NCBI RefSeq assembly: GCF_043381705.1
Contig: NC_092214.1
Span: 2,460,096-2,504,847 of the forward strand
Direction of reading: 5' to 3'
DNA: 44,752 nucleotides
From: Parasteatoda tepidariorum
Lineage: Eukaryota
Under the pieces are notes generated by a model. The model did not search any database, was not told where the DNA came from, and worked only from the letters and a program-made list of their open reading frames with translations. The translations under genes were made by a program, and so were the position numbers. Position 1 is the first letter of the stretch, and each line of letters opens with the position of its first letter. Below are positions 1 to 36,883 of the stretch, piece by piece.

Positions 1-562
1 AATAAATACAAGAAAACACGAAGAAAGTTAAGAAAAACAATAAGTTTCATTTATTGCGCATAAGCTGCAAGTAAACAGAACTCCTTAGATAAGTTCAAAA
101 TGAAGATGAAACAAAGAAAAAGTATAGACAGATGAAAAAAGTGGGGGAATAATAATTTAAAAAAATAACAAATAAGTGATTAAAAAGAAAAAAGGATGAA
201 AATGTATTTAAAAAAACCGGGGAAAAAAAGATATAATCTTTTCATCAGCACACACGATTATATCCGCAAAAAAGAGTGCTTTCTGATATTGTATCAATAT
301 AGCCAAAGCAAAATATATTAATACAATAGTGTGAGGAGCACTCAAAAAAATTTTTTGCAAAAATTACAACAAATTAAATAGAACACAATATGTAAAAATA
401 ACCCGTAAAAACAGAAAATAAAATAAAATTAAGAGAAGAAACAGTATAGCACATAAACTATAAAGCGAGTAGCGAAATCAGATGTACTTACATGAACAAG
501 AAATTTTTCAATAATGATTTAAAAATGTTTTCGCAACAAGATTACCAGATTACAAAATCATC

Positions 563-629
563 TTTTTTTTTTTTTTTTAATCAGTTGCTTGTTATTTTTT
601 AATTATTATTCCCCCCCCCTTTTTTTTTT
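563..629. repeat. Homopolymer tracts T16, C9 and T9
   Basis: Direct reading. Confidence 0.9.
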
Positions 630-2418
630 CATTTGTCTATAATTTTTCTTTGTTTTATCTTCATTTTGGAGTTATATATATATATATATATACACACAGT
701 GCTCAGTGAATTCGAACTTGCAATTTTAACTTCATGATCCAAATTGTTTTAGAATTAATATAAAATTTTAAAAAATAAATTGTTTACCTGTAAATTATTT
801 ATCTCTCATTGAACGGGTTTTTTTTTTTTTAATTCCGTTCGGTGTGATATTTGAAACCAAGAATTTTCCCCATTGGTCATCAATAAGACCATATATTTCT
901 TCTGCGGGTGGGTGAGTTAGGGATGATTTGGTAGCAGTTTTCACCAAAGAAGTGTTAAAAGCTCACTTGAAATAGAAATTTTTTTTGGAATTCAGACACA
1001 AAAAAAAATTATCTTTTTTTTCAAATTGTAAATTTAACTACGCAGATATTGAGTGAAAAATTGCAATATTAGAAAGGGCCTTTCATTTATAAAATGTGAC
1101 CCCCAATCAAACAATATATAAGGTTCCCCGGTTCTGTGGTTCCTGTATCTAGTGCTCGCCGTAACATTTTTTAGAATGTTATCAGGGGCGCCGCGAACTT
1201 AAATTTTAGAGATGGAAGAAATTCCCCTTTTCCCGAATGAAATTTCGAATTTGACCGAATCATAAACAAGTATGTAATTCAATGTTGCTATTTTCGCAAT
1301 TTCCCCCCTCCGTCCGTTAAAATTGTGATGGAATCTCTTGTGTTTAATTCGTGGTTTGTGGAAATTGTGATGGAATTCTATAATTTTTTGAAGATGTTAT
1401 GTACTATACCAACAATCTTACCAAAAAATTTACATTTTAATTTCAAAACCAAAAAATGCAGTAAATATTATATTTTATCTAAATTAAATTTGCACAAACA
1501 TTGCATACGAGATAACATTGCACATAATTGCATACGAGAAAGAGAAGAATAAAGATAAAAAATTTTACATTATCTTTTAAAAGCTGCCTTTAGTATTAAT
1601 GATCAAAATTTGACTACAATCAATTACTCTTTTGAGAATGCTGCTATAACAGAATAGAATTTTGTTTAAAACAATTTTATTGCTTGTATTTCTATATCGC
1701 TTATTATATTATCTGTTATGAAATAAATAGGTTTAAAAAAAAAGTAGGTGCAATATGTAAACAATTTTAAAAAAAGAAAATTTTAAAACAATTAATCAGG
1801 TACTGTAGTCAAGTTTCTAGTATTGCTGAATTAGCCGTAAAAAAAAACTATATTATTCGTTTAGTAATAAATACAATGCTAGTATATAAATACTCAAAAG
1901 CTCGTGCTTAAAAATGCTAAAACAAAATTACTTCCGATATCTTGAAAACTTAAAAGAAACCACCAAACTTTAAATACATCTGTTTTCATAATACTTAAAC
2001 ATTACTATAAAAATTTTCTAACATTATATCTTATTTAAATTTTATTAATGAACATATCATATCTGCCAAACCCCCTTTTCTAAGATTCTGAAGATTTATT
2101 ACGAATTTGCAGAATAAATTACACTCTGCAGTAGTTACGAATGAAAAAAAATCTCGACAAACATAATTTCATAACTTAATTATTTTATTTTGAAACAAAA
2201 CACGACATAAAAATTAACTTCACTCAATTATAAAAGCAATTTATTCTTACCGTCATTGTTTAAATAAACATATCGATAATCTTTTGGTAAAATACAAGTT
2301 AGGAACACATATTTGTCATAAATAAAATAATTTGTATTTTTTATTCCAAAAAACAGGAGTCGTACTATGTGCTAAAATTTTATTTAATATTATTTTTAAA
2401 TAAAAAATGAATTCCAAA

Positions 2419-2823: not shown

Positions 2824-4261
2824 AGGGTCAAATCGAATAATTTTATTTTCAATAATTGAAGTAAATTAGATAATTTCTGAGCTCAAATCTGCCGTATTTC
2901 ATAAAAAATTGATGTTATTAAGTAATTCTGGTGGGTTCGAAGTGAAAATTTATTTTAGTTATTTAGAGATACGTTGTTAAAAAAGGTGGCATGGTTGCTA
3001 AATTTTGAATAATTCCCTTTTTTTGGCAGTCCTGATTTGGCCTCTTTCTATTTGTTTATTACTGTTTGTTCTTGTTGCAAGCTGTGCAGCATCTCTCGTT
3101 ATTGTTAGCACCTTTAGCATTGTAAATACAAGTACCACGTTTGCTAGAATCTCAAAACACAACGATCACGTTGTGAGGCAAATGGCTTTAAAATACACCA
3201 GAAACAGTAACCCGGAAGTATAGGCGGTATGGAGCTTGCAGCGTTCTCTAGTGTAGACGTCTCGGCTGCTGAGCCAGGAGCTTTAGTGCAACGTAAAGTA
3301 CCTACCTGCCTATTAAGTTATGAATCTGAATCTGGCAAACTGTATTAGTGGGCGATTTATCAGTGTATTTCATCATGAATTTTGAATTTGTGTAAAGTAT
3401 GTTTAGTTGGTTTTTGTATTTAATGTAAATTAGTTCTGCTGAAACGTTCCATTTGTAATAATAATTTTTATTTATTTGTTTCTAAGAATGTATTTCACAG
3501 AAATGTATAAATATTTTTGCGCTATGTTTCTATAAAATAATAAAAACATATAGACGGCAGATCTTTTTTGTGGGGATAATTTTGTAATGAAGCGCAGTTT
3601 TATTTATTTAACTTCGATATGAACGCCGTTATTGATGCGTCAGTTTCAGTTATTATTTAAATGATAAAAATAATTTAAAATTGAACCGCGTAAAAATGCT
3701 GAATGAAAGCGTAATTTTTTTGAATAATCATTTCGGCTAAAAGTTACGGACAAGCTAATCTTGTATTGATATAGCGAAATTTAAATTTCATAGCATTTTT
3801 ATTCTCTAATTTGTAGGATTAACATGATATGTTTGTAATGTGAAACTACCTTCTTATATTTTAGTTAGGTACAGCTAAAGATATTTATCCTCAACTCTTA
3901 GTAAATTTAAATATTAAATTGTCACTTTGAAGAAATATATCCTCTTTTTCACTGCTGTATTTTTTCAGATTGCTATTAATTTTGTTTCAATTTTTTTACT
4001 TGGTCTACAGATGTAGCAAGTTAACTCCGATTTTCATAAATAGTATCTTCACTTTTCATTTATTCCTATAGTAACCCTCAGTGGTCTGATTCTAAGGCAG
4101 GGCGCTCAGTAAATTACCAAAGTCAAGCATTTCTGGCAGTGGTGTTTATCCAGGTAGATGTCCACTTTAGTCAGCCTGTGAAAGAATTGAGGGTGTATGG
4201 TATCAATTCCTGGTTAAATTGTTCTACTTGTCATCAAGACTGATTTCTGCCTATTTCTAAA

Positions 4262-5345
4262 CCATAAAGCAATTTAGATGAAATATACAAATTATATTTT
4301 AAAATGTAAAATGAACTGCATTATGTTTTTTTAGTTATCATAGGACAAATGGTGTACTTAAGAAAATATATCTTGAAATTAAAATGATAACAATTTGTTT
4401 TCTAGTTAATTGTAATTACTGTCCTTCGTTGTAATTACTATCCTAGTATACAAAAGCCCATTTCAAAATATAAAACAATAATGATTGTGCATTTGCTTAC
4501 AAAATGTCTTACTTAAGGCAATTTAAAAAATATAAGTGATACCAAGATGTTTTTACAAAGAAAAAATTTTCTATATTTCTTAAAAGTTCTAGATGTAATC
4601 TCTTTTTTAAAAGAATATTAAATCAGGTCTCCCGCAGATTATGAAAAACCTGGAATTGTCGTGGTATGATATGTTAACTCTAAACAGCAAAGAATAATTG
4701 GGAAAGATGCTTTTTTTTTTTTTTTTTTAAATCTGGAAAATTTCTATATCATACCTGGAAAATAACCAGTCTTAGAATTGTCAGTAACAGTTATCAGTTA
4801 TTGAAATTAGAGTTAAGTAATTCTAGCATTTATTATTATTTATAAAATTCTTCTTTTTAGTGAAACTTTTCCAGATTTCCAATCTCATTCTATTATATGT
4901 TTTTGCTTCCAAAATCTAATATTTGATATAACAAATTAAAAATTCAAAGTCATCTGATGAAAAACTGGATGGTATAGATAAAATATCGTATGGATTTACA
5001 TTGAAATTTACCTGATATACCTGGAAAAGTCGCGAAATCTTTTTTTCTGAAATTGCATGGGAACCCTGTTAAACTTTCAACTAAATACTATTTAAAATGT
5101 TCATTTATTTATTAATTATCGATAAATAGACGGAAAAAAAATTTATTTGTTCGTTTTAAAACATCTAAGTAAAGGGACAGTAAGTATATTTTTCCAATAA
5201 ATTACAATTAAAAACTGTTACTGAATTCTTATTTTTAAAGTTTTTTCATTGCTGGTCACTTAAATGCATTAATGTAAAAATGATCAACATGAAGTTAGTT
5301 ATGTGGTGAATTTTTCGTAATTAGCCTAGGCAAAAGTTAACGTTA
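4262..5345. repeat. Copy A of a dispersed or segmental repeat shared with 7683..8395
   Basis: Co-linear blocks include CAAATGGTGTA(C/G)TTAAGAA, ..TTGTAATTACT..GTATACAAAAG.., TGCATTTGCTTACAAAATGTCTTACTTAAGGCAAT and ..TTAGGCAAAAG(T/C)TAA(C/T)GTT(A/T)T(G/A)AGAAAATCACC. Identity is about 70-75% with indels. Confidence 0.6.
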
Positions 5346-5519
5346 TGAGAAAATCACCTATATACTTTAGTGAAATTAAATGCACATGTCTTTTTGTTGC
5401 GCATGGTATGCTCATTTGTATTTTTCAGTGTATGAATTCTTTATGTGCCTTACAATGTACGAAAGATTATCAATTTTTATTTTAAATATAAATTTTTCTT
5501 TTAAAATGTATGAAAAAGA

Positions 5520-5808: not shown

Positions 5809-6906
5809 CTTTCTTTTGTAAATAACAAAACTTTTACCAACTAAAATATTAGCCAACAAAAATAAGATTCAGAAATATAAAATAAATTTTTGTATTGGTC
5901 ATAATATAAAATATAAACTTAATCTCAAGTGTCATGAATATTTCATTAATCTAAAAATCAGAAAGTCTCTTTTTATTGAAATATCTAATCGTAACAAACT
6001 TTTTGTGCATTTTAGTCCCTAAAGAATTTAACAGTTTGAACTGATCTTCTAATCTAAAATCAGAAAATATTCTTTCTAGTCTAGCTGCAAAAAAGAAGCA
6101 GTGAATAATTGAGTAATTGGACTAGATGTTTTGGCTTTCCACTGATATTTTAAATTAATGTAATCAGGGTTGAGGTTTTGGACAGGACACCTGGGTTTTA
6201 CTGTCATAAAGTGTCCACAACCTTGAACATTGGTAAAAGGTAAAAATTCTATATGTGTAACCATTGTACACATAATAATTACATATATTAATAAATATTT
6301 GATACGTTTTTATACAATTTGCTTTTATTAAAGGAAAATAATATGATATAATAGAAAAACATTTAAAATTGACTGCAATTGTCCATTCATTGAACAAAAA
6401 AAAGTGAATACCTTATCCTTTAAATATGAATAAATATGCTTTGAATACTGATAAATTATGTTTTTGCATAAGGTTCAATATTGCAATATTAAAAATAAAC
6501 TTTTTTAATAAAACCAAAACTTGTCTTCATTTTGTTTCTAGTTAAAAAATTAACATTTTATTTTTTGCAATATTTTTTTTAAAATTATGACATAATTTCA
6601 GGGCCAGACTTAGCGTATTTGGTCCCAGGACAAAAACTTCTTTGGGGACCCCCTCTGCTTCTCTACTTCAGTGATGAAGAAATAAACTTTATGGAGATAC
6701 TTAAATTTTTCACCTCATTATAGATAACAAGAAATTTGACTCGAACCTAAAATAAGTATAAGTCCCTCCCCCTCCAATGGTCAAACAAAATATCGTTCTG
6801 TCCATTTTATTGATTTTCTATCAATTCTATGTCTATCATGCCGAATGTAGTTTTCTGATTGTTAACTTGGTCGTCTAGCTGCGGAAAATTCATATCCTTG
6901 CTGACA

Positions 6907-7076
6907 TTAGAGCAGAATTCGGCTGAATTTTCGCAATAACGATGACTCAATTAAGCCAATCAGAAGCCTGTATTTTTGTAAACATATGGCAAAATGCGAT
7001 CTGTAAAAATACAGGTTTTTGATTGGCCAAATTTGTCTTTCGTAATTGCAAAAATTTAGCTGAATTTGCTCTAGAA
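6907..7076. repeat. Foldback inverted repeat of about 170 bp, MITE-like hairpin
   Basis: The left arm 6907..6985 is about 80% complementary to the right arm 7004..7076. Matching blocks are TTAGAGCAGAATTCGGCTGAATTTTCGCAATAACG / CGTAATTGCAAAAATTTAGCTGAATTTGCTCTAGAA and GCCAATCAGAAGCCTGTATTTTTGTAAAC / CTGTAAAAATACAGGTTTTTGATTGGC. The loop is about 18 nt. Confidence 0.6.
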
Positions 7077-7682
7077 AGCCATGGATTTACGAAATATAGA
7101 TTGTGTTCATACGATAGATTAATGAAGATGCTAACATAAAACTGACGAATTTTACACTGCACTGATATTTTGTTTAAAAAAAGTTAATTTAAGAAGGAAA
7201 CTTAGAATAAACTTTCTATTCGATTTGGGGCCCCCCTCTGATGTGGGTGCCCGGGGCAACTGCCCCTTATGCCTCTGCCTTAGTGAGGCTTTGCATAATT
7301 TAAGTAAATAGGTTTTGGATAGTTTAAGGCATAGGGGTTTTAGATAGGACAGTTTAAACTGTGGATTAATCCATTCTGTCCTGAACCTTGCCAACTCTGA
7401 ATGTTATGATATTTTGAAAATGCAATAAGTAGTTTTAATGGAATTATCGTGTTTTCTTGTTACTTGTATTATGAATTGCATAATTTGGAATATTTGCACA
7501 ATTACTTTAACCTTTCACACCACTGACAGCTGTGTAGTGCCATCCAGAAGTCACCATTTTGAAATTTAAAGTTTTTGTATCTCAATATTTTATTACCACA
7601 TTACTTTATGATTATTAGCTGATATAAAGTAATATTGCATCCTATGTTTAAAAAATGCACCAAGGTCAATTTTTACTTATTT

Positions 7683-8395
7683 CCAAACCAGAAGCAGTTA
7701 AGATGAAATATTCAAATTATTTTTTAAAATATAAAGCTGACAATATCTGTTATGCTATTTTTTTTCAATTATTATAAAGCAAATGGTGTAGTTAAGAAGA
7801 ACAATTTTTTTTTTTTGAAATTAAAGAAACAATGGTTCTTTTCCAACTTTTCTCATTACTGTTGCTCTTTGTAATTACTCACTTGGTATACAAAAGTATA
7901 TTTTAAACTAACAAACAAGAGTTTTGGTTTTAAAGCATTATGTATTTGCTTGCAAAATGTGATCTTACTCAAGGGAATATAAAAATGTAAGAAATACAAG
8001 GATGATTTTAGGATGAAAAAGTAAAATTCACTTAAAATTTTTTAATATTTCTTCAAAATTCTATATATAATAAATTTTTTTTAAAAAAATTAAATTTTCA
8101 TTTAAATAGTGTTTAAAATGTTTTCTTTCATTTACTTGTTAATTATTGATGCTTAAAAAAAATAAAATGTTTCCTTCAAATTTTCAAAGCTTTTAAGTTA
8201 TTTGACAGTAGTTACATTTTCCATGCTATTTCAATTTAAAACTCAGTAAATTTATTTTTTAAGTTTTTTCATTTCTCGTCATTGATTTATATATTTGAAT
8301 GTAGGGTCAAAATGTAAAATTCATCCACATTAAAATAGTTTTGGGATGAAGTTTTCCTAACTGGCTTAGGCAAAAGCTAATGTTTTAAGAAAATC
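7683..8395. repeat. Copy B of the same repeat, same orientation, about 3.4 kb downstream
   Basis: See copy A. Confidence 0.6.
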
Positions 8396-11300
8396 ACCCT
8401 TATTCAAAGCTCTTTTTAGTTCATTTTAATAAAAATAAGTGTTTTTGAGTCTTCATTTTAGTAATAAAGAGCCATTTAAATCTTATTAAATTTAAAGTAT
8501 TTTAATACTTCAAATAATTTTTAAAAATAGCTTAATGATTTAATTTTATTTTTAGAAGTAGGGTTGTTATTTTTCTAGACTTGAGAAACTACAGGTTCTA
8601 AGGACCCAAGACTTCCGAATTTCAGCAGAACGTTTTAAATTTTCTCAAATGACAAAAAAAAAAAAATCACTTCAAGTGATGTTTCAAAAATTTGGAAAAG
8701 AAATAAAAAACTTAAGAAAAAGAGAGAGAAAGGTAGTCTCCAAGATGGAAAAAATTCAAAGTGATGTATGATATTTTGAAGAGGATCAATTCTCTACCAC
8801 CTCTTTATCCATCTATCAATATTCTCAGCTATAAGGATTTCATTAATTGAAAGACAAAACAAAGAACTTCAAAAAAGAAAAGAAATTTGAAATATTAGTT
8901 TTTAATTAAAATTTATCAAACTTTTGCCTCAAGGAAAAACAGCCGTGTTATTTAGTAATCTGAATCCTTTTCTCTTTTTAATTTAAAAAAAAAAATTCTT
9001 TTTAATGTTTAGATTAATTTTGCCTGCATAAAGATGGAAAATTAAGCTTCCAAGAGGGTATGTCACTCTTCTTTTTGGCCTATTTGACGTGTTACAACAT
9101 GTAAGCAAAACAGCTGGTGGTTTAAAAAATTTAATTTGAATAATGGTTTGAACTTTAATTGATCTTAATTAAAATTAAAACACTTAATGTTGTGAAAAAT
9201 GTCTAATAACTTTCATAATTGAAATCCTTAACTATCAGAAAAATAGGATAAGGTATAAAAATTTATTTATTCATATTATTTGATACAAATATTTATCAGA
9301 AAGAATTTATTTAACAAGTCAATTACTGGTTTAAAATGTCTTAAGAAATAGTATTAAGATTTTATTTAAAATTTTATCCATCTCTTAATATGTATGGGCA
9401 ATAAATTTTAGTTGAACACAATTTTTAAATGAAATAATAGCATAAAGATTTATTTTAAAATATATTTTTGAATATTCATGTTTTAAAATTTTTTCACACT
9501 TTATTAGTATTATTATGATATGTTAAAATTTTGGTCAAAAAATTGAACAATTAAGTTTAAATTGGAATTATTTTAAATCTGCATAAAACTAATTTACAAT
9601 AAAAGATAACCTCAAATTTTATTGTACAATTTAAAAAAAATGTTGGCAAAACATAAATTTCAAGCTATGTTTAGGCCTTGCAACTTTGGATATGAAGGGA
9701 ACCGTAATAATATTTATTTCATTAGATATTTTTATTTATTACTATAAGTAATTTATTACAACACCTTGTGTTTCGGAATTACTCTGTGTTTGCCATGTAT
9801 TTCACTTTTTCATTTGACAGAATAAAGTTATAAAAAAATAGTGCTGAATATTTAACTTATTTATATCTTCAACAAATTAAAAATTGAAATTCTTTTATTA
9901 AAAAAAATTCTTATATTAAAATCGAAATATTCTTGAGATATTTTATTACAATGCCCTCATTATATTTCACCTTTTAAATTTTATGTAAAATATTTGAAAG
10001 GTAAATAAAATTTAAATTATTAATCATTAAATTTTAATTAATTGAATAAATGTATTTAATTAGTGGTAAAAGAGTACTTGAACACATAAAAGTAAAAAAC
10101 AAATAATTACTTATACAATGATCAGAATTAATCCCAAAACTGGTTTTTTCTTTTTTTTTTAACAATCATATAAGATTTGAATTTACAATATTTTAATTAT
10201 GTCTTGATTTAGGAAAGTGATTTACTTATATGGTTTACCAATTGTATTGCATAACTATTAAAAAAATACTCGTACGTATATATGTAATTAAATTGTTAAC
10301 AGGTTTTTAAAAACTTATTTGTAGACCATGGGGGAAAAATGGTTTATGTCAATAAAAGTTGATGCTAAAAAAAGAAAAAAGTGATTAATGCAGAGAAAAG
10401 AAGGGTTTTTCCACAGTGCGACCCATCTTCACTGTGTAGTAACTCTCGGGGATAATCGATTTTACATGTTATTAATTTGTCAAAACTTAGTATTTCTCAA
10501 AATGCAAAAGATGGCAATCCAATAGTCATTTTTTTGTTGTTAAAAATGAACATAAACCCTTCTTCCTTTATATTCATATGTTTTTGTTCTATAAGAAAGA
10601 CAATCAACTTTCTATAAAATTTTGCTTTTTGAAAATAAGATATTGCACAGGTAAAGAACCTTTTACTTGTATTTTAATTCTTCTAATTTCTAATGAAAAA
10701 AAAACTAACAAAAATAAAAATCTCAATATACTTTGATGAGGAAAAAAAAAACTAATAAGTAGTCTTGAGTAAATTAGTTCTAAACAAAACAGGCTTAGGA
10801 ATAGCAATTTAACCCAGTGATGGTATTAAATACTATATATTATAAATAATAAGAAAAACTTACCTTTTATGATTTGGGGAGGATATTTCAATGTAGGTAC
10901 CTGTCCATACTGCTAAAAATGTTTAAGTAAATATTTTATCTCTTAACTACCAGCACATTTATATAAATTGTCGTTATAAGCTTTTATAGACAAAATATGT
11001 TGTGGATCCCTTGATTTTACATTTTTGATATCCGAGGAATATTAGAAAGCTATAGATGTTTTATATCATTCTTTGATGCTAGACTGGATATTCTGCTAAT
11101 ATTTTTGAAATGTTTTTGGACATAAATTTTTGATATCATTTTGTGATATTTAAATGATATTTCTCTAATAATTGTAAAATCTGTCCTGTTTTAACTTTAA
11201 CTGTATTTTTTTCACTTAATATGATGAAATGTAATGCTGTAAATATTGAAATAAAAATTTCTTTGTGAAAGAACTGAATAAATGATATTGTGGTAACAAT

Positions 11301-19360: not shown

Positions 19361-21804
19361 TCACAGAATCACCATCATACCAGGTTTAATAATGTCCCAT
19401 ATTACTTTGGTACAACCTTGACAAAGAGGATCAGATACAACACCCATTATGTACAGGTGTCTCCTGAGGATGCAGTGTCCAGTGAGGAGACCAATGTTCC
19501 TCAAACTGTTCCTGTTTAGCTTAAGAAGCTCTTTATGACGCACACTTTGACAGTTATGATTCAGCTCTTTAGCCTGTCTCTTACAATCCGAGTTGCACCA
19601 TTGCTCCTGGGTAATTTTGCCATAGAGCTTGAAAATAGATGCCATGAACGATGTGAGTGAGATTCCCAAAGTTGGTTCAGGTCCCCAGAAAATCACACTG
19701 GAGATGGCTTGTGTTGCTTCTTCAGCCAGCTCATTTCGAAAAATATCCTATATGTCCAGATACCCAATGTAGGTATATTTTGTTACGAGTAGAAAGGTCA
19801 CAAAGAACTCAGAAGCATTCCCACACTAGTGAAGAAGTGAATTTACACTTTGATAAGAGAGCAGCCTGACTGTCAGAACAGATTTGGATAGGTATATTTA
19901 GATAATCCCTGTTTAAGCATATCCTGCAGCTCAAGATAATAGCTTTGACCTCAGCCTGAAAAGCAGTGGCTTAACTACCTAGAGGAAAGTAGAGTATGGT
20001 ACCATCATTGGAGCAGTAAATTCCTGCCCCTGCTTTAAGACCAAGCCTTGATACATCAGTGTCCCATACCAGACACTTGCCTTCAAGCCATCGAGAAGAT
20101 TTAGTCCATTCATGTCTAGTAGGAAAATGGATCTTGAAGGGCTTATGAAAAGCCTTTCAAGACTATGCAAGACTTACTAGGCATGATAAAAGAAAAAATA
20201 TCTGACACCTGCAAAACAAGATGACCCCTTGACAAATGCTTGGAATATTCCTTCCATAAGCCGAGGTACATAAGATGTTTAATACCTGTCTGAGCTTCAG
20301 CTTCAATTCAATGGGAGAAGCCCAAGTAAGCTCTCAAGAGCAGCTGCAGGAGTGGTCCTGAGACAGCCTGACAAGGCTACACAGACCTTTCTTTGCAGTC
20401 TGTTAAGACTTGACCTGATGGAGCTGATCCTAATCCTAGACCACCAGACAATAGCGCCATGTTTGTCAATGGGGTTAATAATCATTGAGTACATCCTGTA
20501 AACTGAGCTATCTTGGGGCATAACCCCCAGGTTCTACCAATAGCATTTCTGCAAGACCAGGATATCATCTTGGCCCTGTGGATACAGTATTCTAGATGAG
20601 AACCCCAGTTATGTTTGGAGTCTTTAAAATCACCAAGAAATTTGACTTTCACAGTTAGTTCTAACCTATAATCTAGGTAATACACATCACCTAGATTAAG
20701 AAGCCTTTTCCTGGTGAAGGCCACAAGACTTATCTTGGAATTTTTAACAGATAAGCCAGATTCAAAGCATTATCTAGCTACTTCTGGAAGTGCACTATTC
20801 ATGATTTCAAATACTGTTTTACCATAATTGCCTCTGACAACAATATCACCATCATCAGCATACCCAACACAGGGAAGGCCAAGATTGGCTAGCCAAACTA
20901 GCAGAGTCCATAACCATACACCTTAATGATGGGTGACGAAGCCCCTCCTTGAGGGCAGCCTAAAGTAGCATGAACTCTCATGCTTGTGCCCAGTAAAGAG
21001 GAACAAACATACCTGGAGGACAACTGATTAGCTATCCACCTGGTGATATCCAGATTGATACCTCTGGTTTTAAGTGCATTGATGATAGTCTCAACAGGGA
21101 CTTTGTCAAAAACATCTTCAATATCAAAAAAATACCGCCAGAGCAATCTCTTCATCTGAGAGTGCTTTCTCAAGCATGAAGGAGAACTCATATAAAGCAG
21201 AGTCTATTGATAGCAGAGAGCCAGGTTGATAAGCATAGCATACTGTGAGGAGAACAGTGGCTTATCAACGAGTACAGAGTCTCTAAAATATCTGCCAATA
21301 AGTTTTTCTATGGCTTTCAACAGTTATGAAGTGAGGCAAGACAGACAAGAGGTGAGGCTGATTGGTCTAAATGATTTAGCCTCAAAGTAATTTTCCTTAC
21401 TTGGTTTTGGGAAGAAAATTACCCTGGTATTCCTCCAAGAATGAGGTTTATACCCAAAGGCTATACAGGTTCAAAAGATCCTACATAGAATAGAGTATAG
21501 TATGTCAATCTCCTTAGTAAGCATTACAAGTATGATATCATCCATACCTGGTGACTTATAGGGCTTAAATATTTAATAGAGCATATTACTTTTCGTAGGA
21601 GATCACCATCTTGGGGGCCTCCCAGTCATTTTCACTGTAAGTAGCTGTAGGACTTTTGAAAACATAGTCATTCTCTACAGGATGAAATCCAGGGAAGTGA
21701 GCTTCAAATAATTCACCAAGAGCCTCTTCGTCTGACTCACTATATTTTCCGTTTGTAAGATTGATAGCTGTCGGAGCAGCACAACAGATTTTTGTACTCA
21801 ACAC
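19361..21804 (-). pseudogene. LINE ORF2 (RT and C-terminal zinc-finger region), fragmented
   Basis: As above. ORF-track segments 21586..21804, 20898..21191, 20482..20724, 20303..20521, 19979..20170 and 19361..19696 all belong to one decayed ORF2. Confidence 0.7.
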
Positions 21805-21822
21805 GACAGATTTTTGTACTCA
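21783..21822. repeat. 17-bp tandem duplication (ACAGATTTTTGTACTCA twice) at the junction between the two LINE fragments
   Basis: Direct reading of acaacagatttttgtactcaacacgacagatttttgtactcag. Confidence 0.7.
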
Positions 21823-22350
21823 GAAACATAATTGAACAAAGTCTGGAAATGAATTCTTCCTTATACTTAACTTTTATTGATTTCAGTAAGGCATTTGACT
21901 TCCTGCTAGGTGTTTTCTGAATTTCATTTTAGCCATAAGGTTTTCTTGTTAATCCTGATTTAGGGTTTTGGTTCAATAGACCTCTGGTCGATGTGACCTG
22001 CTTTTTGGAGCTGCCCAACCTCTGAGTCTAAGACATTTGACTCTCTCAATAAGGGTATGCTGTGGATGATCTTAAGGAATTATCCCTGAAAAAATTTTAA
22101 ACATCATAAAGAGTATTTTTGACAGCAGTAAAGCCAGTGCAGAAGTTGATGGCACACTGACTAGATCATTTAATGTTCAAAAAGGAGTAAGACAAGGCTG
22201 TGTCCTTGTGGAATTCCTATTTATAATTGTCATCAATTGAATCATGAGGCAAACAATTCAAAATCACATACAATGAAAATTTGACACCACTTTAGAAGAC
22301 CTGGATTTTGCCGATGATATTGTTCTTATATCTAATTTTAATGATCTGAG
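21800..22350 (+). mobile_element. RTE/CR1-like non-LTR reverse transcriptase fragment (plus strand)
   Basis: The plus-strand translation gives ..IIEQSLEMNSSLYLTFIDFSKAFDFL, ..LWMILRNYGIPEKI (the printed GIP is my memory of the consensus; the sequence itself reads LRNYP followed by a stop), ..KASAEVDGTLTRSFNVQKGVRQGCVLVEFLFIIVIN*IMRQ and ..LEDLDFADDIVLISN (the FADD box at 22307..22318). It has one frame disruption and two in-frame TGA codons at positions where Trp is expected. Confidence 0.6.
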
Positions 22351-23052
22351 TATGAAAACACTAAGAGGGACCACCTCCCCATATTGGGCCCTCCTCCCAA
22401 GAGCAACATTCTCCCTGGGTTTCCTACCAAGTTGGGTCAGCACACGGGGGGTCGGGCGTTGCATCTGAAGGCCTCTTAGCTCCATCACTTCTCTTAGCGT
22501 CTTCCACTTTTTCTTCAGTTTCTTTCTCTGTCTCTTAGATAGTCCCGCGGTGCCAGGCATACTGTCCCCTGATTGTCTCTGGCCGAAACTCCAACGGAAG
22601 CAGGACTTGTGCCTTTGGACCTCTCCTTGCCAGCATTACTAGCAATAAGCTGCAAAGCAGCAATATTAGCACTGGGCTCACCCAAAGGCATACCATGTGC
22701 TACTGGAGACTGTAGTTTACTTTTCGAACAAGAAACTCTGCCTGATTCCTGAACGCACCCCTTGTTAACTGGTGCAACAGATAATGCTGTATCATAAGGT
22801 TTAACTTGAAGCATCAATTTAAACTGCCTGCCATTTAGTTAGTCAATGAAGAGTATCCAGGGGGTGCCGGCATTAACCCCTCAAATGTTTTGTAAGAAAT
22901 ATAATTTTTGCTAGATTTATTGTTCCTATTGTTCCATAATGAAAACTTATATTTTGCTTGTTGAAGTGATTTTTTTTAATTAGTCAATATGGTATTTAAA
23001 GTTTTGCTTATCTCTTGCTTTTATAAAATTTCACATTTTTTTTAAATTTCAG

Positions 23053-23114: not shown

Positions 23115-23509
23115 GTTAGTTTTTCTTTTGTTTTTAATGTTGCATATTATTGAATTCAATTTCAGATAGTTTTTTTTCCTTACGTCTAGATATTTCCTTA
23201 ATATGCGCTACTGCTATAAAATTTTAAAAGTATACTTATTTCTAATATTGAAAATATTTTTTCCACATTAAATAATCTTATTTATCATTTGAAAAAGAGT
23301 ATTGTTTGGTGAACAAGAATCAAAATAATGAGTTAACTGTGTTGATTCTGTTCACTATATAAATTTAATTTCCTAATAATAAACAAGTTCTATAATTATG
23401 TTTAAAAGTCTCGATATTTGCAATTTGTTGTGAAGATTTTAATTTTTCTAGGTTTTATTATTTTTGTCATATTTTGAAAACTGTTGTTTGCTATTTTTGA
23501 CTGGAAATA

Positions 23510-23540
23510 CACTGGTGTAAGAAATTAAGAGAATTTGCAG
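23510..23540. repeat. Tc1-like left TIR
   Basis: About 28 of 31 nt match the reverse complement of 25005..25035. Patchier similarity extends to about 60 bp. Confidence 0.7.
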
Positions 23541-23722
23541 ACTTGGTCGATTATCTCTAGAACTACTGGATCGATTGTAATTAAATTTGATATGTACATA
23601 CATTGATGCAATCCAAAACAAATAACCATTCAACAATTGTAATACACAATTGTGATCGTGCGTAATACTCATTGGAGTCCAAATGCATGAAACAGCGGTT
23701 GCAGAATAAACAAAAAAATGGG

Positions 23723-24761
23723 TTAATAGGGGGTATGGTCTCCTCTTACAGGTATACAGGCTTTGCAGCATGATTTCATACTTGAAATAAGGCAGTTTAT
23801 CATTTCATGTAGCAATTGGTCCCACTCGTTCCGCAAGACTGTTTTCATTCCCTGGATGGTTCTCGGAGGGGGTAACAAGTTGCAATTGCCCTCCCCAGAG
23901 CATCCCAGATATGCTCTATAGGGTTGAGGCCTGGAGATCTTTCTGGCCAATCCATCAAGCGACTATCCTCCCTTTCTAGAAATTCGTTGACCAGGTGAGC
24001 TCTATGTGGCCGTGCATTATCGTCCATTAAAATGAACTCGGCCAACTACACCCCTGAAAAAGCAAACATAGGGCTCCAAGACCTCATCGCTATACCTCAC
24101 ACCAGTCACATATCCTCATTCAAAGACATGGAGAGGTGTGCGGCTATCCAACATGAGACTTGCCCAGAGACTTATCCAACATGAGACTTTTAAATCTGCT
24201 CCGCCATAATGGTCGATGTCGCGGACATTGAAGGGTAGGTAGTGGGTCCCTGGCTCTCTCCATATGAATGTACAGTGAGAATCTGTGTTTAGGCTGAACC
24301 GGGACTGATCAGTGAAGAGAACCGTCGCCCATTGATCCATACTCCAATCTCTATGCACTATGCTGAGTGGACTCTCCTGTTTGTAGAAGTGAGCGTGACG
24401 CTAACAGGAAGTATTCTTGCAAACAACCCTTTCTGATGAAGTCGTTTGAAAACAGTCGCCCTTGATACACGGGCTCCTGTGGCTGCATACAAGTCACAAG
24501 AGAGTTGAGAAACTGCAGCCCTTCTGTTACGCTTTGCTGTAATGGACACATGGCAATCTTCTCTGCTGTAGTGTTTCTTGGTCGATCTTGCTCAGGCTTC
24601 CTTTCCTTGAATCCGTTATCCTGAAACTGTTTCAATAAGTTACACACGATGCTGGGCTTTAAATTGAACTCTCTACAAGTCTGGACCTGAGATTGACCTG
24701 TTTCTAGCCTTCCCACAATTTGCCACCTCAATCCATCATGTAAACGTAGGTGGTTACTCAT
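23723..24761 (-). pseudogene. Tc1-family DD34E-type transposase, split over at least five frames
   Basis: Conserved blocks appear in order on the minus strand. They are the N-terminal HTH (LRWQIVGRLETGQSQ..LLKQFQDNG..RKPEQDRPR), then RNRRA..SQLSCDL..RVSRATVFKRLHQKGLFAR, then HRDWSMDQWATVLFTDQSRFSL...FIWREPG, then FILMDDNARPHRA...MDWPERSPGLNPIEHIWD, and finally C..KACI..RGDHTPY. Each is in a different frame. Confidence 0.8.
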
Positions 24762-25004
24762 TTTTACTGTTACAATATAAATTTAACCTATTGCTGCAAA
24801 ATAATACCAAAAAGTTCGCCAAGGTGTGCTAGCGAATGAAATGCGGCTTAATTTACGCTCACTTATATAGCCTGTTTCTTTACTGGTTACGCCTACACAC
24901 ATGTGTACGATTATGTCTGTACTAAGATGTGCAAGATTTGCATTTTTATCTAGAAGCAGTAGTTTAGCATTCAGTTCAGTTCTTTTCATGAAATTCGATA
25001 AAAT

Positions 25005-25035
25005 ATGCAAATTCTCTTAATTTATTTCACCAGTG
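25005..25035. repeat. Tc1-like right TIR
   Basis: Inverted copy of 23510..23540, followed by TA. Confidence 0.7.
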
Positions 25036-25499
25036 TAAACTAGCTCATTCTAAGTGAAATTGACCCAAATAAAAATAAGTCTCAGTGTGGTCATGTCGCA
25101 GATTTTCATGACAATTTTTGTAGAAAAACAACTAAAATAATTTTTTCAAAATATTGAACTAAAACTAATGTTAGGCCATTTTGAAATTTGACTCAATTTA
25201 AGGAAATTGTGTAACTCTAGATGGTGGCTCTTTTGTTGAAAGTATCCATATCTTTCTTATTTATAAGCTAATTTTCTTAATTTTGGTATCATTATAAAAG
25301 AAAGGTCGACACAACACTATGCAATTACACTATCAAAATGTAATAATTTTTTTAAAAAATTTATTAGTTTTTTTATCTTCAAATTTTAAGAATTTCTTAA
25401 TAAGAAGTAACTTGCACCACCTAATTTTTTCCTCATTATGTTAAATACTATGTTATGTTACTGTTAAGCATATGAAAATCAAGTGAATGTTTTTTGTCT

Positions 25500-26366
25500 A
25501 AATAAATAAAAAATGATTTTCAACAAAAATTCTTCAAGATTTTTTTTTAGCACAAAAACAATATTTCGTAGCCTTAAGAGTTTTTTCTTTATAATATTGA
25601 CTATATTTTTCCATATAAAAATAAAATGGGGATTTTCTGTTTTTGTCATTAAAAAAACAAAAAATGGTTTTTTGCCAAAATACATAAAGATTTCCTTATA
25701 ATAACAAGACAGTTTATTGACCTCAATTTTTTTTCTTCTGTTGTTTAATGTCATCTTTTTCAATTTGAAAAATATCAAAAGGGTTTTTTTTTTTTTTGGT
25801 CAGTGAAAATATGAAAACTGTTTCTTAGTCTTAATTTCTTGTTGCTTAATTTCTTATAGCACAAAAACTTTCTTGACTTCAATTGTTTTTCTTTTCTTTT
25901 TTTTGCAACTTGAAATGTTGTATTTTTCACTCTAAAAAATTAGGAAGTATTTTTTGTCTTAAAAAGGATAAAAAGTGTTTTTTTTATTAGCCAAAATTAA
26001 AAATTTTTATAGCACGAAAACAAAGTTTCTTGTTGTCATTTTTACATATATAATATTAAATGTTATACTTTTCAGCAAGAAAGAAGTTAAAAAAGTTTTT
26101 GGTTTTGGTCCTTAAAATAATAAAAAGTGATTTTTAGTCCAAATACTTAAAAAAAAATGTAGGTGAAATAACGAAGTTCTCCAATCTCAATAAAAAAAAC
26201 ACCTTCTTAGTTTTTTTTTCTATATTGAAAAATATAGCATTTTACATTATGAGAAAAAAAAATTTAAGGTCAAGAAACTTTGTCTTTGTGCTATTGAAAA
26301 ATCTTTGACTATTTTAGCTAAAAATCACTTTTTTTTAATATCCAAAAACAAAAAAAACCCAGTTGT

Positions 26367-26397
<31 letters not shown>

Positions 26398-26560
26398 CTT
26401 TAAAAGGCTCAGAAAGGCTTTATATACATATCTTATCAGAAAACGACTTTTTTATGAAAAAAAAAATACCCTCTTGATTTTTTTTTGTTAAAAAGTATAT
26501 TTAACATTTTGAGAAAAAAGAAACTGAGGTTGTGAAAGTTGTTACTTCCCAATATTAAAT
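25500..26560. repeat. Array of degenerate AT-rich repeat units in both direct and inverted orientation
   Basis: Direct copies: T(T/A)TAGCAC(A/G)AAAAC.. at 25546, 25853 and 26007. Inverted copy: 26267..26345 (AGGTCAAGAAACTTTGTCTTTGTGCTATTG...GCTAAAAATCACTTTTTT) is the reverse complement of 25955..26036. Also (TA)13 at 26367..26392. Confidence 0.5.
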
Positions 26561-29500
26561 TCTTGAAATTTGCAGAAAATTTCTTTGAAAAGTTACATGA
26601 TTAAAAAATTATCCTTATATTTTCAACATTTCAGTAGCTTAGTGTTGATTTTTTTTTCTAATGAAAGAAAAATTAAAATAATTGGCTCATAAATAAAAGA
26701 AAAGATATAGACATTTTTAAAATATTTACCACCATCTGTAGTTATGTCATTTTCTTAATTTAAGTCAAATTTCAAAATGACCCTCTAACTATAGTTTTGA
26801 TTCAAAAATTCTAAAAAAAATTAGCCATTTTTCATCAAAAACTTTTCATGAAAATCTGCGATATTACGTCAAGAGCCATTGGTGGATTTCACTTTGAATA
26901 AGCACACGAAAGTTGCATATTGTTAATATATATACTTATGAGGAATTAAATTTTTGTGTTTAACTACATTAATACCTCTTGTTAGCATTTCTAATAATGA
27001 TATTTTCTATGTAATGTATGAAAATACAATTAGTAGAACAGGAGTCTTCTTTTTTTAAGGGGCTTCTTTTGTTTTTTAAGTCTATCTTTGTCTACTGGCC
27101 ATGCTTTCATACAGCTGACTCAGATTTTTCAAATATTTTAAGCACCGAATCAAAGTAATAGTATAATTTAGACAGTTTGGTCTAGTATTGCATCACACTA
27201 CACCAAACATCTAATTTAAATTTTTATTCTTTATGCTATGAGAGAAATTAATAGGAAAGGATTAGATATGGTGAAATGTGCAGTTTTTCTCACTCTGGAA
27301 ATAAATAAGATTCAGGATAATAAAAAAAATTTTTTTATCCTTTTTTTTGATAAAAATTTTTTTTTTATCCAAAAAAAAGTTTTTTTTTCATGGTTTAACC
27401 CAGTTTTTTTTTTTTTTTGATTTATTTAAAATTTTATAGTATTATAAGTATTTCAAAGAAATTGTTTTAACTAATGATTAATATTTTAATAAAAATTACA
27501 GAGATATTCACTTTTGTTCCTAATTAAGTGAACATGATAAAAAATACTATAATAACTAAAGATTTCTAGTATTTATTGCTACTTCACTTACCACGCAAAT
27601 AACCATTTAATATCAAAAAATTTTTTAGTATTGCATGTATGTAAAAGTTATTTAACCTCTGTAATTGTTAGTATATAAGGAAATGTGATTCAGAACTATT
27701 TATATTAATGTTCTTATTTTAAAGTATACAAATTATTGTATTAATATTAATTAATTGTTCTGAAATATACTTTTGTTTTTCATTTATTGAATCAAAACAT
27801 ATTTTAATATGAATGAGAGTGAGATATTCAAGGCAATAAATTTTTTTTTAATTCAAAATATTTAAAATTCTTAGATAAATGAAAACAAATGAAAAAGAAA
27901 AATGTGCATAAATAAAACATATTAAATAGTAAAGGTATGTTACAGTACAAACTGTTTGAAAAATGAAGAATAAATTACTTTTTTATTGTTTATTTTAACA
28001 TGATGGATCTCTAAATTTAACAATATTCTTATTGACTTATTGTAACATTCAATAATTAAGAAAATATACTTTAAAAATATTTTTAGTTCATTTAATATTT
28101 TTTTCTTTAACAGTTTTTTATATAATATAAAAAATGTAATTTGACAATAATAAACATAAACGTGCTGTATTTATACAATACAAATTTGTTTACACTGGCA
28201 GAAAATAATTCTAAAATTAAACTGAAAAAAATAAAATGTAGAAAACACTTCATTCCTATTTATACTTTTGATTGCAGCAAACATAATGAATTTAAGAAGC
28301 ATTTAAAAGTAAACTTTGAGAAACTTGAACTCTGTTAATAATTGCATTGTTTTGCTAATTTTAGAAACTACAGAACATGGGATGTCTATTAAATTTTAAG
28401 CATTTGAGAGAGGTTGATGTAATTCTAAATTTGCTCACATTATTTACCATCAAGGATGGCAAGTTTCTACCACTTCCAGAAAACTTCCCCGTAAGAAATA
28501 AGTTTTGGGAACCGAACTCTTTTTTTGTTAGAAAAGAAATATGACATATTTAAAAAATTTATAATTGCAATCCAGTTTAAGTATTAGTATTAATTTTCAA
28601 GCTATTTTTTTGTATCTCTTTTAAACAAGTTAAAACTAAAATGTAGAAAAAAATCAGGGAAATTTTTTGTATGAAATTTTTAAAAAATTAAAATAACTAG
28701 CTTTTCAATATTTTATGTTATACAATATTGCAATACTTAATTAAATATATAAAAAAACAATTAAAATAACATAATCAAGTTTTATTAATACCACTGAGTT
28801 AATAAATCATATACTAAACATATATATTACTAAAAACTTTCTTTATACATAGGTGGACCTGTGAAAAAAAAGAAATGCAAGAAGAAGCTTGGTGGCAGTC
28901 CTAAATGTAAACAGGGTGCGTAGCATTTTTAAAAAGTGCTTAAAAATGCTTATTTTTGATTTACGTTTTTCAAAAGCCCTTAAAAGTGCTTTTTTATTTG
29001 GTGTTTGTAATAAGTGCTTAATTTTTTTATCTTTTAAGAAGAGAATTTTTCTTTGCCATATCGATTGTCGTTCTAAATTACAAAAAATTCATGTTTTTTA
29101 TAATTTTCTCTGCAATATTTATCAGAAATTAGTTATTTTATCATGATTATGTAAAGTTTTTGAAAATGTTTTTGAGTTTTAGTGATTTTATGTTTATAAA
29201 TTAAGAACTTAAACCATAGAAAAAAAATTTTGTTACTGCACAGATCCTAGTTATGATTTTTGTTTTTTGAAAGTGATTAAAAATATTTTTTGAATGCTTA
29301 AAAAGTGCTTATTCTTTGATGAAAAATCTGGCTACGCAACCTGGTAAAATTATCCATAAGCCTGTCTTTCTCATTACAAAGTAGATAAAAAGTTTTATCT
29401 ACAATTATGGTTTAAGTTAAAGCTATAGGGGAGAGGGGAGCTAGCATGGATATTTTTACAAATTTGTCAGAAAAGCAAATTTAATATAGTTTTTAACTAA

Positions 29501-32349: not shown

Positions 32350-32782
32350 TGTATAAGTTTCGGTGATGGGAATGTAAGACTTTCAAATGAAACAATATGG
32401 CAATGAAACATCCTCTTTAATAGTAAAAGTTAACAAACCATCAAGAAACTTCACAAACTCCAATTAACAAGTTATTCGTTAAAAAAACATTAAAAGTTGT
32501 TATTAAAAGAACAATTAAAACTTAAACTTTTGATTGTAAATATCTCATACAGCAGGTGGGCGTCACCTGGTAGAAACGGGATATCAGGACGAAGTCTCAA
32601 ACACTGTACAACAACCCCTTTTCACTCCCTGCCTTGGCCGCCGGTTGATGCTCCTCCACCGGGATTCATCCGCGCAGGAACTATTTCGGTTCGTCCTCCT
32701 ACCTTCGGACTTCGATCCAATACTCGATCCTTCTACCTCGGTTTTCATGCTACCTCAGCTGTCGCAACCAACAGCCTCTACA
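32350..32782 (-). repeat. 3' LTR (in element orientation) of the gypsy-like element
   Basis: About 95% identical by eye to 36884..37307, with about 20 substitutions plus one indel of about 9 bp near 32540. It starts TGTATAAG and ends CTCTACA on the plus strand. Confidence 0.85.
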
Positions 32783-33586
32783 GTAGCCCCCTCCCAGCGC
32801 TAGTGAGACTTTTCCAGCACATTGCTGATACTTTCCCTGAAACTTAACTCGACGGCCTGGTCGTGTCTTAACCTCTTTTGGCATGTCACTAGGGTCTGGG
32901 ATAGTAGATTCCTCTGTAGATTCGCTCATAACTGTTGATTCGCTTTTAGGAAATATGTCCTGTTCACCTCGGGATACATATGCTGGTTTTAGATAATCCA
33001 CATTTACCGTAATTTCCCGCCCATGAATAAGAATCCTAAAAACCTTCTCCCCTCGACTCAGCACTTGAAATAGACCCTCGTATGGTGGCTGCAGGCCTTT
33101 TTTCAGGACATCGGTCCTCAGGAATACATGACTGCACGATGAAAGGTCTTTACTTACAAAAACTGCTCTATGACCCTGATGTCTGGACTTTACTGGCAGC
33201 AACTCCTGCATGGTCTCTTTGAGCTTTCCAACAAGGTTTGCGGGATCCGCTGTACCAGTAGACGGACATAAAAATTCTCCAGGCAGTCGTATCGGAGCTC
33301 CAGAAACCATTTCCGCTGTCGTTGCTTGCAAGTCTTCCTTCCATGCAGCTCTAAAACCTAAAAGAATCGTAGGTAAAACTCTGGTCCACTGACTTGTATT
33401 GTAGGCTCTAATCGCTCCCTTCATCTGTCTGTGAAATCTTTCCACTTGACCATTTCCTGCGGGATGATAAGGGCTTGTTCGATGACGAGCCGAACCCAGG
33501 AACTTAGTCAGGGCATCGAACAGTGAGGCTTCGAACTGTGTTCCCTGGTCTGTTGTGATGCATAGAGGTATTCCAAATCTAGCAAT
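32750..33586 (-). CDS. Integrase core and C-terminal GPY/F domain, same frame as 33587..35326 after the TGA
   Basis: Reading through the TGA gives IARFGIPLCITTDQGTQFEA...PYHPAGNGQVERFHRQMK (the DD..E core), then LQPPYEGLFQVL (GPY/F). The ORF ends in the PPT/LTR. Confidence 0.8.
   Translation of the reverse strand: MARFGIPLCITTDQGTQFEASLFDALTKFLGSARHRTSPYHPAGNGQVERFHRQMKGAIRAYNTSQWTRVLPTILLGFRAAWKEDLQATTAEMVSGAPIRLPGEFLCPSTGTADPANLVGKLKETMQELLPVKSRHQGHRAVFVSKDLSSCSHVFLRTDVLKKGLQPPYEGLFQVLSRGEKVFRILIHGREITVNVDYLKPAYVSRGEQDIFPKSESTVMSESTEESTIPDPSDMPKEVKTRPGRRVKFQGKYQQCAGKVSLALGGGYCRGCWLRQLR
32787..32795 (-). other. Polypurine tract GGGAGGGGG immediately upstream of the 3' LTR
   Basis: The minus strand reads CTGGGAGGGGGCTAC|TGTAGAGG.., where TGTAGAGG begins the LTR. 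Confidence 0.55.
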
Positions 33587-35326: not shown

Positions 35327-35628
35327 ACCCCTGATGCTACCAGAAATTCAAACTCTTGTTTTGCAGCCTTCAACTTATCTGGCGATAAACGTCGAGGTTT
35401 CGAAAAAACAGGAGGTCCTTTTGTGTGCATCCAATGTTCTACTCCATGCTTAACTTTTCTTGGCGTGACACCTGACCTAATCAGAGCAGGAAATTCTGAG
35501 AACAAATTGTGGAATTTAGAGTTCTCTAAAATTACCTTTACCATTGAAGCATTCCCAGCATACCGGGTACCTCTTGTTTGCAACTTGGTCAAAGGATCAA
35601 TTACTGCAGCATTTTTGACGTCTACTAA
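35230..35628 (-). pseudogene. pol segment: protease C-terminus and reverse transcriptase N-terminus, ending at a frameshift
   Basis: ..KLKAAKQEFEFLVASGVCQPSKSCWASPLHMVLKK is the conserved RT N-terminal block. The expected continuation WRPCGDFRRLN is in the -1 frame. The shift falls inside the A6 run at plus 35273..35278 (T6 on the plus strand). Confidence 0.7.
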
Positions 35629-35982
35629 TTACCCAAAATTGCGTAAGAAGTCAGCTCCGATAATTGAATGAGGCACGGCAGCGATGATAAAAGGCCAGCT
35701 GAACTCTCCTCTGAGTCCGAGGTCTAATTTCAACAGGCGTTGGCCAAACTTTGGAATCGTCGAACCATTTGCGGTGAACAATTTCATCTGAGAAGACTGG
35801 TCGCTAGATGCATAGGCAGCACGAGGTATCACAGATATGTCAGCTCCCGTATCGATGAGATAACGTGAGGATGTAGACTTGTCCGTCAGATAAAGTCGCT
35901 GAATCATCACTTCGCCGTCACCCTTTTGACTGGATGACGGCCTCAGCAGTTTTCCGGTAAGAATGAACATGGAGGTCTGCAT
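35629..35982 (-). CDS. Retroviral-type aspartic protease, start of pol, closed by an in-frame TAA
   Basis: Carries LIDTGADISVIP, the D(T/S)G active site, and IIGADFLRNFG. The same frame reopens straight after TAA (35629..35631) with LVDVKN.., the usual protease-to-RT junction. Confidence 0.75.
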   Translation of the reverse strand: MQTSMFILTGKLLRPSSSQKGDGEVMIQRLYLTDKSTSSRYLIDTGADISVIPRAAYASSDQSSQMKLFTANGSTIPKFGQRLLKLDLGLRGEFSWPFIIAAVPHSIIGADFLRNFG

Positions 35983-36713: not shown

Positions 36714-36863
36714 TAATCCAAAATTTATAAGTCTAACAATAGAAGTAATTTGTACTCACGGCTTGCCAAAAATTTTAAAACTTGAAACATACCAGCATTT
36801 CTCCGTGATCCTTCAACTAGGAGAATTTCTCAAATACAGTTTGCAGAAACAGAAATATACGTA

Positions 36864-36881
36864 TTCGTTCACAGGTCACCA
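36864..36881 (-). other. Putative tRNA primer-binding site, TGGTGACCTGTGAACGAA
   Basis: On the minus strand, 2 nt downstream of the 5' LTR end (..CA|AT|TGG..), 18 nt are complementary to a tRNA 3' end of the form ..TTCGTTCACAGGTCACCA-3'. The tRNA species was not identified. Confidence 0.5.
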
Positions 36882-36883
36882 AT

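Follow-up and report, generated by a model that had tools for sequence, protein, structure and literature searches.

A long imperfect palindrome within a candidate 695-bp non-coding unit: probable remnants of nested non-autonomous transposons in a repeat-rich spider locus

The window, i.e., the whole 44.7-kb stretch of DNA that was analyzed, is eukaryotic rather than prokaryotic or viral, has ~25% GC and is almost free of open reading frames, of which only five reach 120 codons. The GC content lies between 0.21 and 0.31 per kb, except for two blocks of 0.34–0.46 that are transposons; outside the transposon coding regions the setting is therefore as AT-rich (75%) as a preliminary description of this DNA had stated. 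Spider genomes have been reported to be low in GC and rich in repeats, most of which are unclassified (PMC7788392). The transposons of the window include an LTR retrotransposon, LINE-like reverse transcriptase fragments, a Tc1-like element, a second element with terminal inverted repeats (TIRs) and a small non-autonomous element with CAGG...CCTG ends, in addition to the region described here (Table 1). The pol ORF has its best matches among spider proteins, from Oedothorax gibbosus (68%), Trichonephila (61%) and an entry present only in UniParc (78%), and the LINE fragments match best a protein of Parasteatoda tepidariorum, which points to the genome of a spider or a close arachnid.

The 445-bp CAGG...CCTG element interrupts one of the two copies of a dispersed repeat; the uninterrupted copy reads …AAATTAAAT|TTTCATTT… at 8094/8095. 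The element is flanked by TTAAAT and TTAAAC, and subterminal CCTGGAAAA motifs are repeated within it. Based on this empty paralogous site, small CAGG-ended non-autonomous elements did insert in this neighbourhood. The same approach was tried for the region under study, via the dispersed repeat 7658-8403 / 4232-5363; the repeat stops short of that region.

Table 1. Features of the studied region and of its surroundings, with positions in the window
Feature	Position	Strand	Remarks
Imperfect palindrome (foldback)	6908..7073	.	166 bp; candidate long-TIR MITE relic
Parts of the palindrome	left arm 6908-6985; loop ~6986-6996; right arm 6997-7073		from gapped alignment
Left terminal TA of the palindrome	6908..6909	.	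possible Tc1/mariner-type TA target-site duplication (TSD), or just the opening two nucleotides of the TIR
Right terminal TA of the palindrome	7072..7073	.	read from the sequence
GC-rich 17-mer, copy 1, TTTGGGGACCCCCTCTG	6641..6657	+	repeat search, motif scan
GC-rich 17-mer, copy 2, TTTGGGGCCCCCCTCTG	7224..7240	+	repeat search, motif scan
Left GC-rich block, U1	6592..6680	+	contains ACTTAG, AAACTT, 17-mer, CCTCTG
Right GC-rich block, U2	7185..7293	+	diverged direct copy of U1, with extra segments of 7 nt and 37 nt
Mini-palindrome GGGGCAACTGCCCC	7253..7266	.	inside U2; read from the sequence
Candidate 695-bp non-coding unit, CAGGGCCAGAC...GTGAGGCTTTG	6599..7293	.	ends CAGGG...CTTTG
8-bp flanking direct repeat, left copy, CATAATTT	6591..6598	+	candidate TSD
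8-bp flanking direct repeat, right copy, CATAATTT	7294..7301	+	candidate TSD
LTR retrotransposon	32350-37311		gag (DUF7041), RT, RNase H and integrase domains; LTRs 93% identical
LINE-like RT fragments	19364-22838		
Tc1-like element	~23508-25037		TIRs ~70 nt, start TACACTGGTG
TIR element	86-678		TIRs ~110 nt
CAGG...CCTG non-autonomous element, CAGGTCTCCCGC...GGGAACCCTG	4624-5068		445 bp

The central feature of the region is an imperfect palindrome that had been placed at 6907..7076 with arms of about 78 bp, and our analysis found it with nearly these limits. A repeat search returned ungapped arms of 62 nt each (6916-6977 / 7005-7066), 77% complementary and separated by a spacer of 27 nt, while gapped alignment extended the arms to ~78 nt at ~77% complementarity; compared with itself by BLAST, the palindrome was 76% identical across 173 nt. 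When the segment 6890-7090 was folded as DNA, its energy was -49.5 kcal/mol versus -19.5 +/- 3.1 for shuffled sequences (z = -9.75), a value that was reached by none of 200 shuffles. Folding of the hairpin as RNA, the check proposed in the preliminary description, gave -88.6 for the plus strand (z = -13.3) and -76.6 for the minus strand (z = -9.6). The palindrome is thus far beyond chance.

The boundaries of the palindrome read TAGAGCA.../...TGCTCTA, with (TA)GAGCAGAATTCGGCTG... as the terminus. Complementarity within the 40 nt outside each arm was no higher than in shuffled sequences (p = 0.69), so that the palindrome ends exactly at these two heptamers; a longer version, stretched to 6889-7093, was rejected, the extension not being significant. 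The chance expectation for TA is ~0.14 in the local composition and, because TA is its own complement, its presence at the two ends is uninformative as a test for a TSD. Divergence between the arms is ~22%, and between the two LTRs of the retrotransposon in the window it is 7%. If the arms began as identical sequences, the palindrome is therefore several times older than the LTR insertion, and a foldback MITE with arms this diverged would be old and inactive.

Two GC-rich 17-mers in direct orientation lie on either side of the palindrome, as had been described, and 16 of their 17 positions are identical. They are the sole matches in the whole window at up to 3 mismatches, where 0.05 would be expected by chance, and their core GGGGNCCCC is palindromic. 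The 17-mers do stand on both sides of the hairpin, as the view of them as its brackets would have it, yet they enclose it loosely and asymmetrically, 250 nt away on the left and 150 nt on the right; due to these distances they do not constitute a TSD of the palindrome.

Both 17-mers are embedded in larger GC-rich blocks, U1 and U2. At 6599/6600 the GC content jumps from 0.12 to 0.53, and its maximum, 0.67, lies at ~7230-7289. Direct, gap-tolerant local alignment of 6585-6720 with 7180-7310 gave a score of 56.5, which was not reached by any of 1000 shuffles, and with the 17-mer masked the direct alignment of U1 with U2 remained significant (p = 0.012). It spans ~7185-7286 in U2, and the block continues to the end of the unit at 7293. 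The collinear pieces common to both blocks are TAATTT, ACTTAG, AAACTT(T)C, the 17-mer, CCTCTGC and AGTGA. AAACTT, for which 0.48 occurrences are expected, was counted 4 times, and CCTCTG, for which 0.07 are expected, was counted 3 times; every one of them lies on the plus strand. U1 and U2 are diverged direct copies of one sequence; in the inverted orientation their similarity was not significant (p = 0.175). The extra 37 nt of U2 have CCTCTG at both borders and include the mini-palindrome GGGGCAACTGCCCC. A tandem array of the GC-rich unit was ruled out, with no third unit found either from 7294 onward or upstream.

The outer limits of the two blocks coincide with a candidate unit of 695 bp that is flanked by the octamer CATAATTT, a perfect direct repeat that is 8 bp long and no longer, the adjoining bases on either side being mismatched. 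At random window positions, an exact flanking 8-mer was found near two boundaries 695 bp apart in 1.4% of cases within +/-5 nt and in 0.3% within +/-2 nt, which corresponds to p ~0.014 and ~0.003 for the presence of this repeat at the composition boundaries. Of the 17 positions compared between the termini of the unit, 10 are complementary (p = 0.005 at fixed register), which makes a marginal TIR. Under a broad null, in which a search box of 160 x 180 nt was allowed, 8% of random AT-rich loci gave an 8-bp repeat together with at least 10/17 terminal matches, and under this null the outer TIR/TSD signal is therefore weak. An 8-bp TSD combined with a GC-rich TIR of the observed quality was found at 0 of 5000 random loci of the window, by a criterion that was chosen after seeing the data. 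Taken together, we consider the TSD/TIR reading of the 695-bp unit probable; the empty site predicted without the unit reads ...ATGACATAATTTAAGTAAAT....

The TIRs of hAT transposons start with YARNG (CAG.G type), and both ends of the unit fit this pattern, with CAGGG on the left and CAAAG at the start of the reverse complement of the right end, CAAAGCCTCAC. The target consensus of Ac-type hAT elements is nTnnnnAn. For the Buster group it is nnnTAnnn (PMC3517528). The octamer CATAATTT and its complement AAATTATG fit neither consensus, both of which are preferences and not absolute rules. No hAT transposase was detected in the 44.7-kb window.

The region was also examined for coding capacity, of which it has none. 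No open frame inside the unit exceeds ~80 codons, and the concatenated six frames of 6599-7293 had no protein match at E <= 10 among 5.8 billion sequences. The longest open frame at its right end, 83 codons that run across this end, matched nothing among 1.84 billion representatives. ARAGORN detected no tRNA-like sequence, and no similarity to tRNA, 5S or 7SL RNA was found in 6300-7700 (Rfam, E <= 1). A SINE was rejected, as these two scans gave no Pol III-type head and there is no A-rich or simple-repeat tail at either end; a Helitron and an LTR/TRIM element were rejected on a reading of the terminal sequences only.

Further copies were sought inside and outside the window. Self-BLAST of 6580-7400 (word size 7) returned the arms of the palindrome only, without a second copy in the 44.7-kb window, and none of the GC-rich islands or GGGG..CCCC motifs scanned there had ends related to these. 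Neither the palindrome nor the 695-bp unit was present in ~110 kb from Oedothorax, Trichonephila, Araneus and an ENA assembly; the LTR element was the sole sequence of the window shared with this set. Among viral contigs, the hairpin core matched nothing and the 17-mer had one chance match, in which the similarity stops at the 17-mer. The hairpin core had one chance match in metagenomes, to a contig with a GC content of 37-42%, with no similarity beyond 25 nt. The paired stem pattern was matched 32 times in prokaryote genomes, with none of the matches reaching past the stems, and a full-text search of the literature for the motif strings gave no match.

Based on these results, we favor, with moderate confidence, the view that the region is decayed non-coding transposon debris, most likely consisting of two nested relics, a foldback MITE inside a hAT-like unit. 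For the segment 6908-7073 the best reading is a non-autonomous DNA transposon whose hairpin is formed by its TIRs, given its small size, its lack of coding capacity, its long imperfect TIRs, its sharp TA...TA ends and the presence of other TIR elements in the window. This is the first of the origins that had been proposed for the hairpin, although the 17-mers that went with that proposal are no insertion duplication. A MITE would be expected in many copies, and the absence of a second copy of either unit from the sequences searched counts against this reading. The palindrome looks like a separate long-TIR foldback MITE nested in the 695-bp unit, and is possibly of Tc1/mariner type. It would have arisen when a long-TIR cut-and-paste element, plausibly of that type, lost its interior, leaving two ~78-nt TIRs and a short loop, and its mobilization would then have depended on a TIR-binding transposase supplied in trans. 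Similar to Tc1/mariner foldback and Stowaway-like MITEs, the palindrome consists almost entirely of long TIRs, with a short loop and TA...TA ends. Its TIR, TAGAGCAGAATTCGGCTG..., is unrelated to the TIR TACACTGGTG... of the Tc1-like element in the window, the sole Tc1-like element with which it was compared.

The older host of this foldback MITE would be a non-autonomous unit of ~695 bp, CAGGG.../...CTTTG, flanked by an 8-bp duplication of CATAATTT. Its architecture would be that of a hAT-type MITE. The two subterminal blocks go back to one sequence and have since diverged, and the 17-mer, which may once have been a motif bound by the transposase, would be the best-kept piece of this subterminal repeat. 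The idea that the 17-mers mark the ends of a composite element therefore receives some support, since they belong to related blocks that end a ~695-bp unit with an 8-bp repeat. Past mobility and multi-copy status are what we infer for relics of this kind.

Known hAT MITEs provide the closest comparison for the outer unit. Mar of Drosophila willistoni is an AT-rich hAT MITE of 610 bp with imperfect 11-bp TIRs, CAG(G/A)GGTAGGC, and 8-bp TSDs (PMC3517528). Like Mar and Vege from the same species (600-900 bp; PMC3517528), the 695-bp unit is non-coding with an AT-rich interior; TIRs in that pair start with CAG(G/A)G, to which the ends CAGGGCCAGAC / CAAAGCCTCAC and the 8-bp CATAATTT on both sides compare well. 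Unlike hAT MITEs, the unit has a TSD outside the Buster and Ac consensus and a TIR match of only 10/17, it is single-copy in the sequences searched, and its subterminal blocks match each other as direct and not as inverted repeats. Similarity confined to the direct orientation is not what a simple TIR element would lead one to expect, and it counts against the hAT-type unit. Within the window, the 4624-5068 element resembles 6599-7293 in being small and non-coding, with CAGG-type termini and repeated subterminal motifs, and it lies in the same neighbourhood. The two differ in that the flank duplication of the 4624-5068 element is ~6 bp and its insertion is demonstrated by the empty paralogous site, and they have no sequence similarity.

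The block orientation is better accommodated by the strongest of the alternatives, in which the region is a single non-autonomous repeat of ~700 bp with direct-repeat ends that has contained the palindrome from the start, either as a repeat unit of its own or as a fragment of the non-coding part of a larger element. In its favor, U1 and U2 align significantly in the direct orientation only, all common motifs are on the plus strand, and there is no independent sign that the palindrome arrived by insertion. However, the ends of the palindrome are sharp and fall on TA...TA, and the unit ends in CA...TG and not in the TG...CA of LTR-type terminal repeats. Moreover, no primer-binding site adjoins the left block, judged by eye, and a third unit is missing from 7294 onward. 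We regard this alternative as unlikely, although it ranks ahead of the others.

Slightly less probable still is a local rearrangement without any transposon, in which an inverted duplication, by fold-back priming or template switching, gave rise to the palindrome and a short dispersed duplication gave rise to the blocks, the result being single-copy and decayed. The region is indeed single-copy in everything searched, the blocks are direct repeats ~590 bp apart, and the TSD/TIR statistics of the outer unit are weak under the broad null. On the other hand, the jump in GC content falls exactly at 6599, adjoining the perfect 8-bp flanking repeat, and the window contains several TIR elements, one of them with a proven insertion. 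Long-TIR foldbacks with TA ends are, furthermore, a typical transposon-derived structure.

It has also to be considered that the 17-mers are themselves the TSD of an inserted or retroposed segment of 566 bp (6658-7223) within a GC-rich MITE of ~112 bp. A direct repeat of 17 bp, here matching at 16/17 positions, has a length that target duplications made by LINEs can have, and when 6658-7240 is removed a compact GC-rich unit is left with CATAATTT still on both flanks. Nevertheless, no poly(A) or microsatellite tail adjoins a 17-mer on either strand, and the segment has no similarity to elements that bear a reverse transcriptase. The similarity of the blocks is also collinear past the 17-mer on both sides, as the masked alignment indicated, and a simple TSD is insufficient to account for it. 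This origin is improbable and follows the local duplication in our ranking.

A hairpin-RNA or small-RNA source had also been suggested; Rfam gave no evidence of a hairpin-RNA or miRNA gene. If transcribed, the hairpin could act as a precursor of hairpin-RNA, endo-siRNA or miRNA, a role compatible with a transposon origin. As in MITE-derived miRNA and hairpin-RNA loci (MIR2600, MIR6140, Drosophila hpRNA), the hairpin is long, stable and imperfect, with a likely transposon origin. The RNA fold is very stable on both strands, and at E <= 1 Rfam returned sub-threshold matches only, to MITE-like plant miRNA families. The best match was MIR2600, with 26.3 bits against a gathering score of 98, followed by MIR6140 with 21 against 140. 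These scores are far under threshold, both families are from plants, and no family reached its gathering score anywhere in the window. The differences between the arms include four G:U pairs on the plus strand versus two on the minus strand, which is no clear strand bias, and thus there is no sign of selection on the RNA fold. Furthermore, arm mismatches of ~22% together with indels are what neutral decay predicts. A functional hairpin RNA is accordingly improbable as well, and we place it behind the 17-bp target duplication.

In an arachnid genome that is low in GC and rich in repeats, a feature of this kind is ordinary, and it is no pointer to a new mechanism or an open question. If the preferred reading of two nested relics were confirmed genome-wide, the repeat library would gain one or two MITE families that are so far unclassified, the hAT-like unit and the long-TIR foldback, which would be of some use in masking repeats and in dating transposon activity. 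Least probable of all, and hardly to be expected, is that the GC-rich blocks are functional direct repeats, recognized by a recombinase or a transcription factor and flanking a cassette with a transcribed regulatory hairpin RNA; if this were true, the region would be a domesticated transposon-derived module and not junk. The core GGGGNCCCC of the 17-mer also fits the Rel/NF-kB-type pattern GGGRNNYYCC.

Among the other repeats of the window, one insertion is documented by a filled and an empty site. Two copies of a dispersed repeat, copy A (4232-5363) and copy B (7658-8403), are ~69% identical, and copy A is split by a 445-bp non-coding element while the corresponding site in copy B is intact. 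The insert is flanked by TTAAAT and TTAAAC, and copy B has one TTAAAT, an arrangement that implies a target-site duplication of ~6 bp. Repeated CCTGGAAAA-like motifs were found near both ends of the element.

Mobile elements of the window
Feature	Window position	Details
445-bp non-coding element	4624-5068 (filled site); 8089-8095 (empty site)	CAGGTCTCCCGC...GCATGGGAACCCTG
Tc1-like element	23508-25037	~70-nt TIRs, TACACTGGTG.AA.AAATTAAGAGAATTTGCA
Ty3/gypsy-type LTR retrotransposon	32350-37311	minus strand

Two coding elements were also identified. The Ty3/gypsy-type element, for which spider proteins were the best matches, is bounded by LTRs at 32350-32786 and 36884-37311 with 93% identity to each other. 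Its gag contains DUF7041, and its pol, broken by frameshifts, carries RT, RNase H and integrase domains. The Tc1-like element encodes a frameshifted transposase with HTH domains and is adjoined by degenerate LINE RT fragments (19364-22838).

A perfect 17-nt palindrome, AAATTATG-A-CATAATTT, lies at 6582-6598, immediately to the left of the candidate 695-bp non-coding unit; the left copy of that unit's candidate 8-bp target-site duplication forms the right half of the palindrome. Within the GC-rich 17-mers of the unit, the cores are GGGGACCCCC (6644-6653) and GGGGCCCCCC (7227-7236), both of which match the Rel/NF-kB-type pattern GGGRNNYYCC. In Trichonephila clavipes (L039, BMAU01005049.1), a repeat-like stretch at 2380-2480, adjoining a Tc1/mariner transposase gene, contains many GC palindromes (GGGGCCCC, GGGCGCCC, CAGGGCCC); it resembles the GC-rich blocks at 6592-6680 and 7185-7293 in style but not in sequence.

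Another MITE-like element, located at 86-678 and unrelated in sequence to the palindrome or the 695-bp unit, consists of ~110-nt inverted repeats (86-193 and 567-678, 76-89% complementary) enclosing a ~370-bp interior. Two segments of ~700 bp (25090-25794 and 26189-26867, 66% identity) make up a long inverted repeat, possibly a large foldback or one repeat in two inverted copies. A local direct duplication of ~170 bp was observed at 2419-2591 and 2656-2821, with 75% identity.
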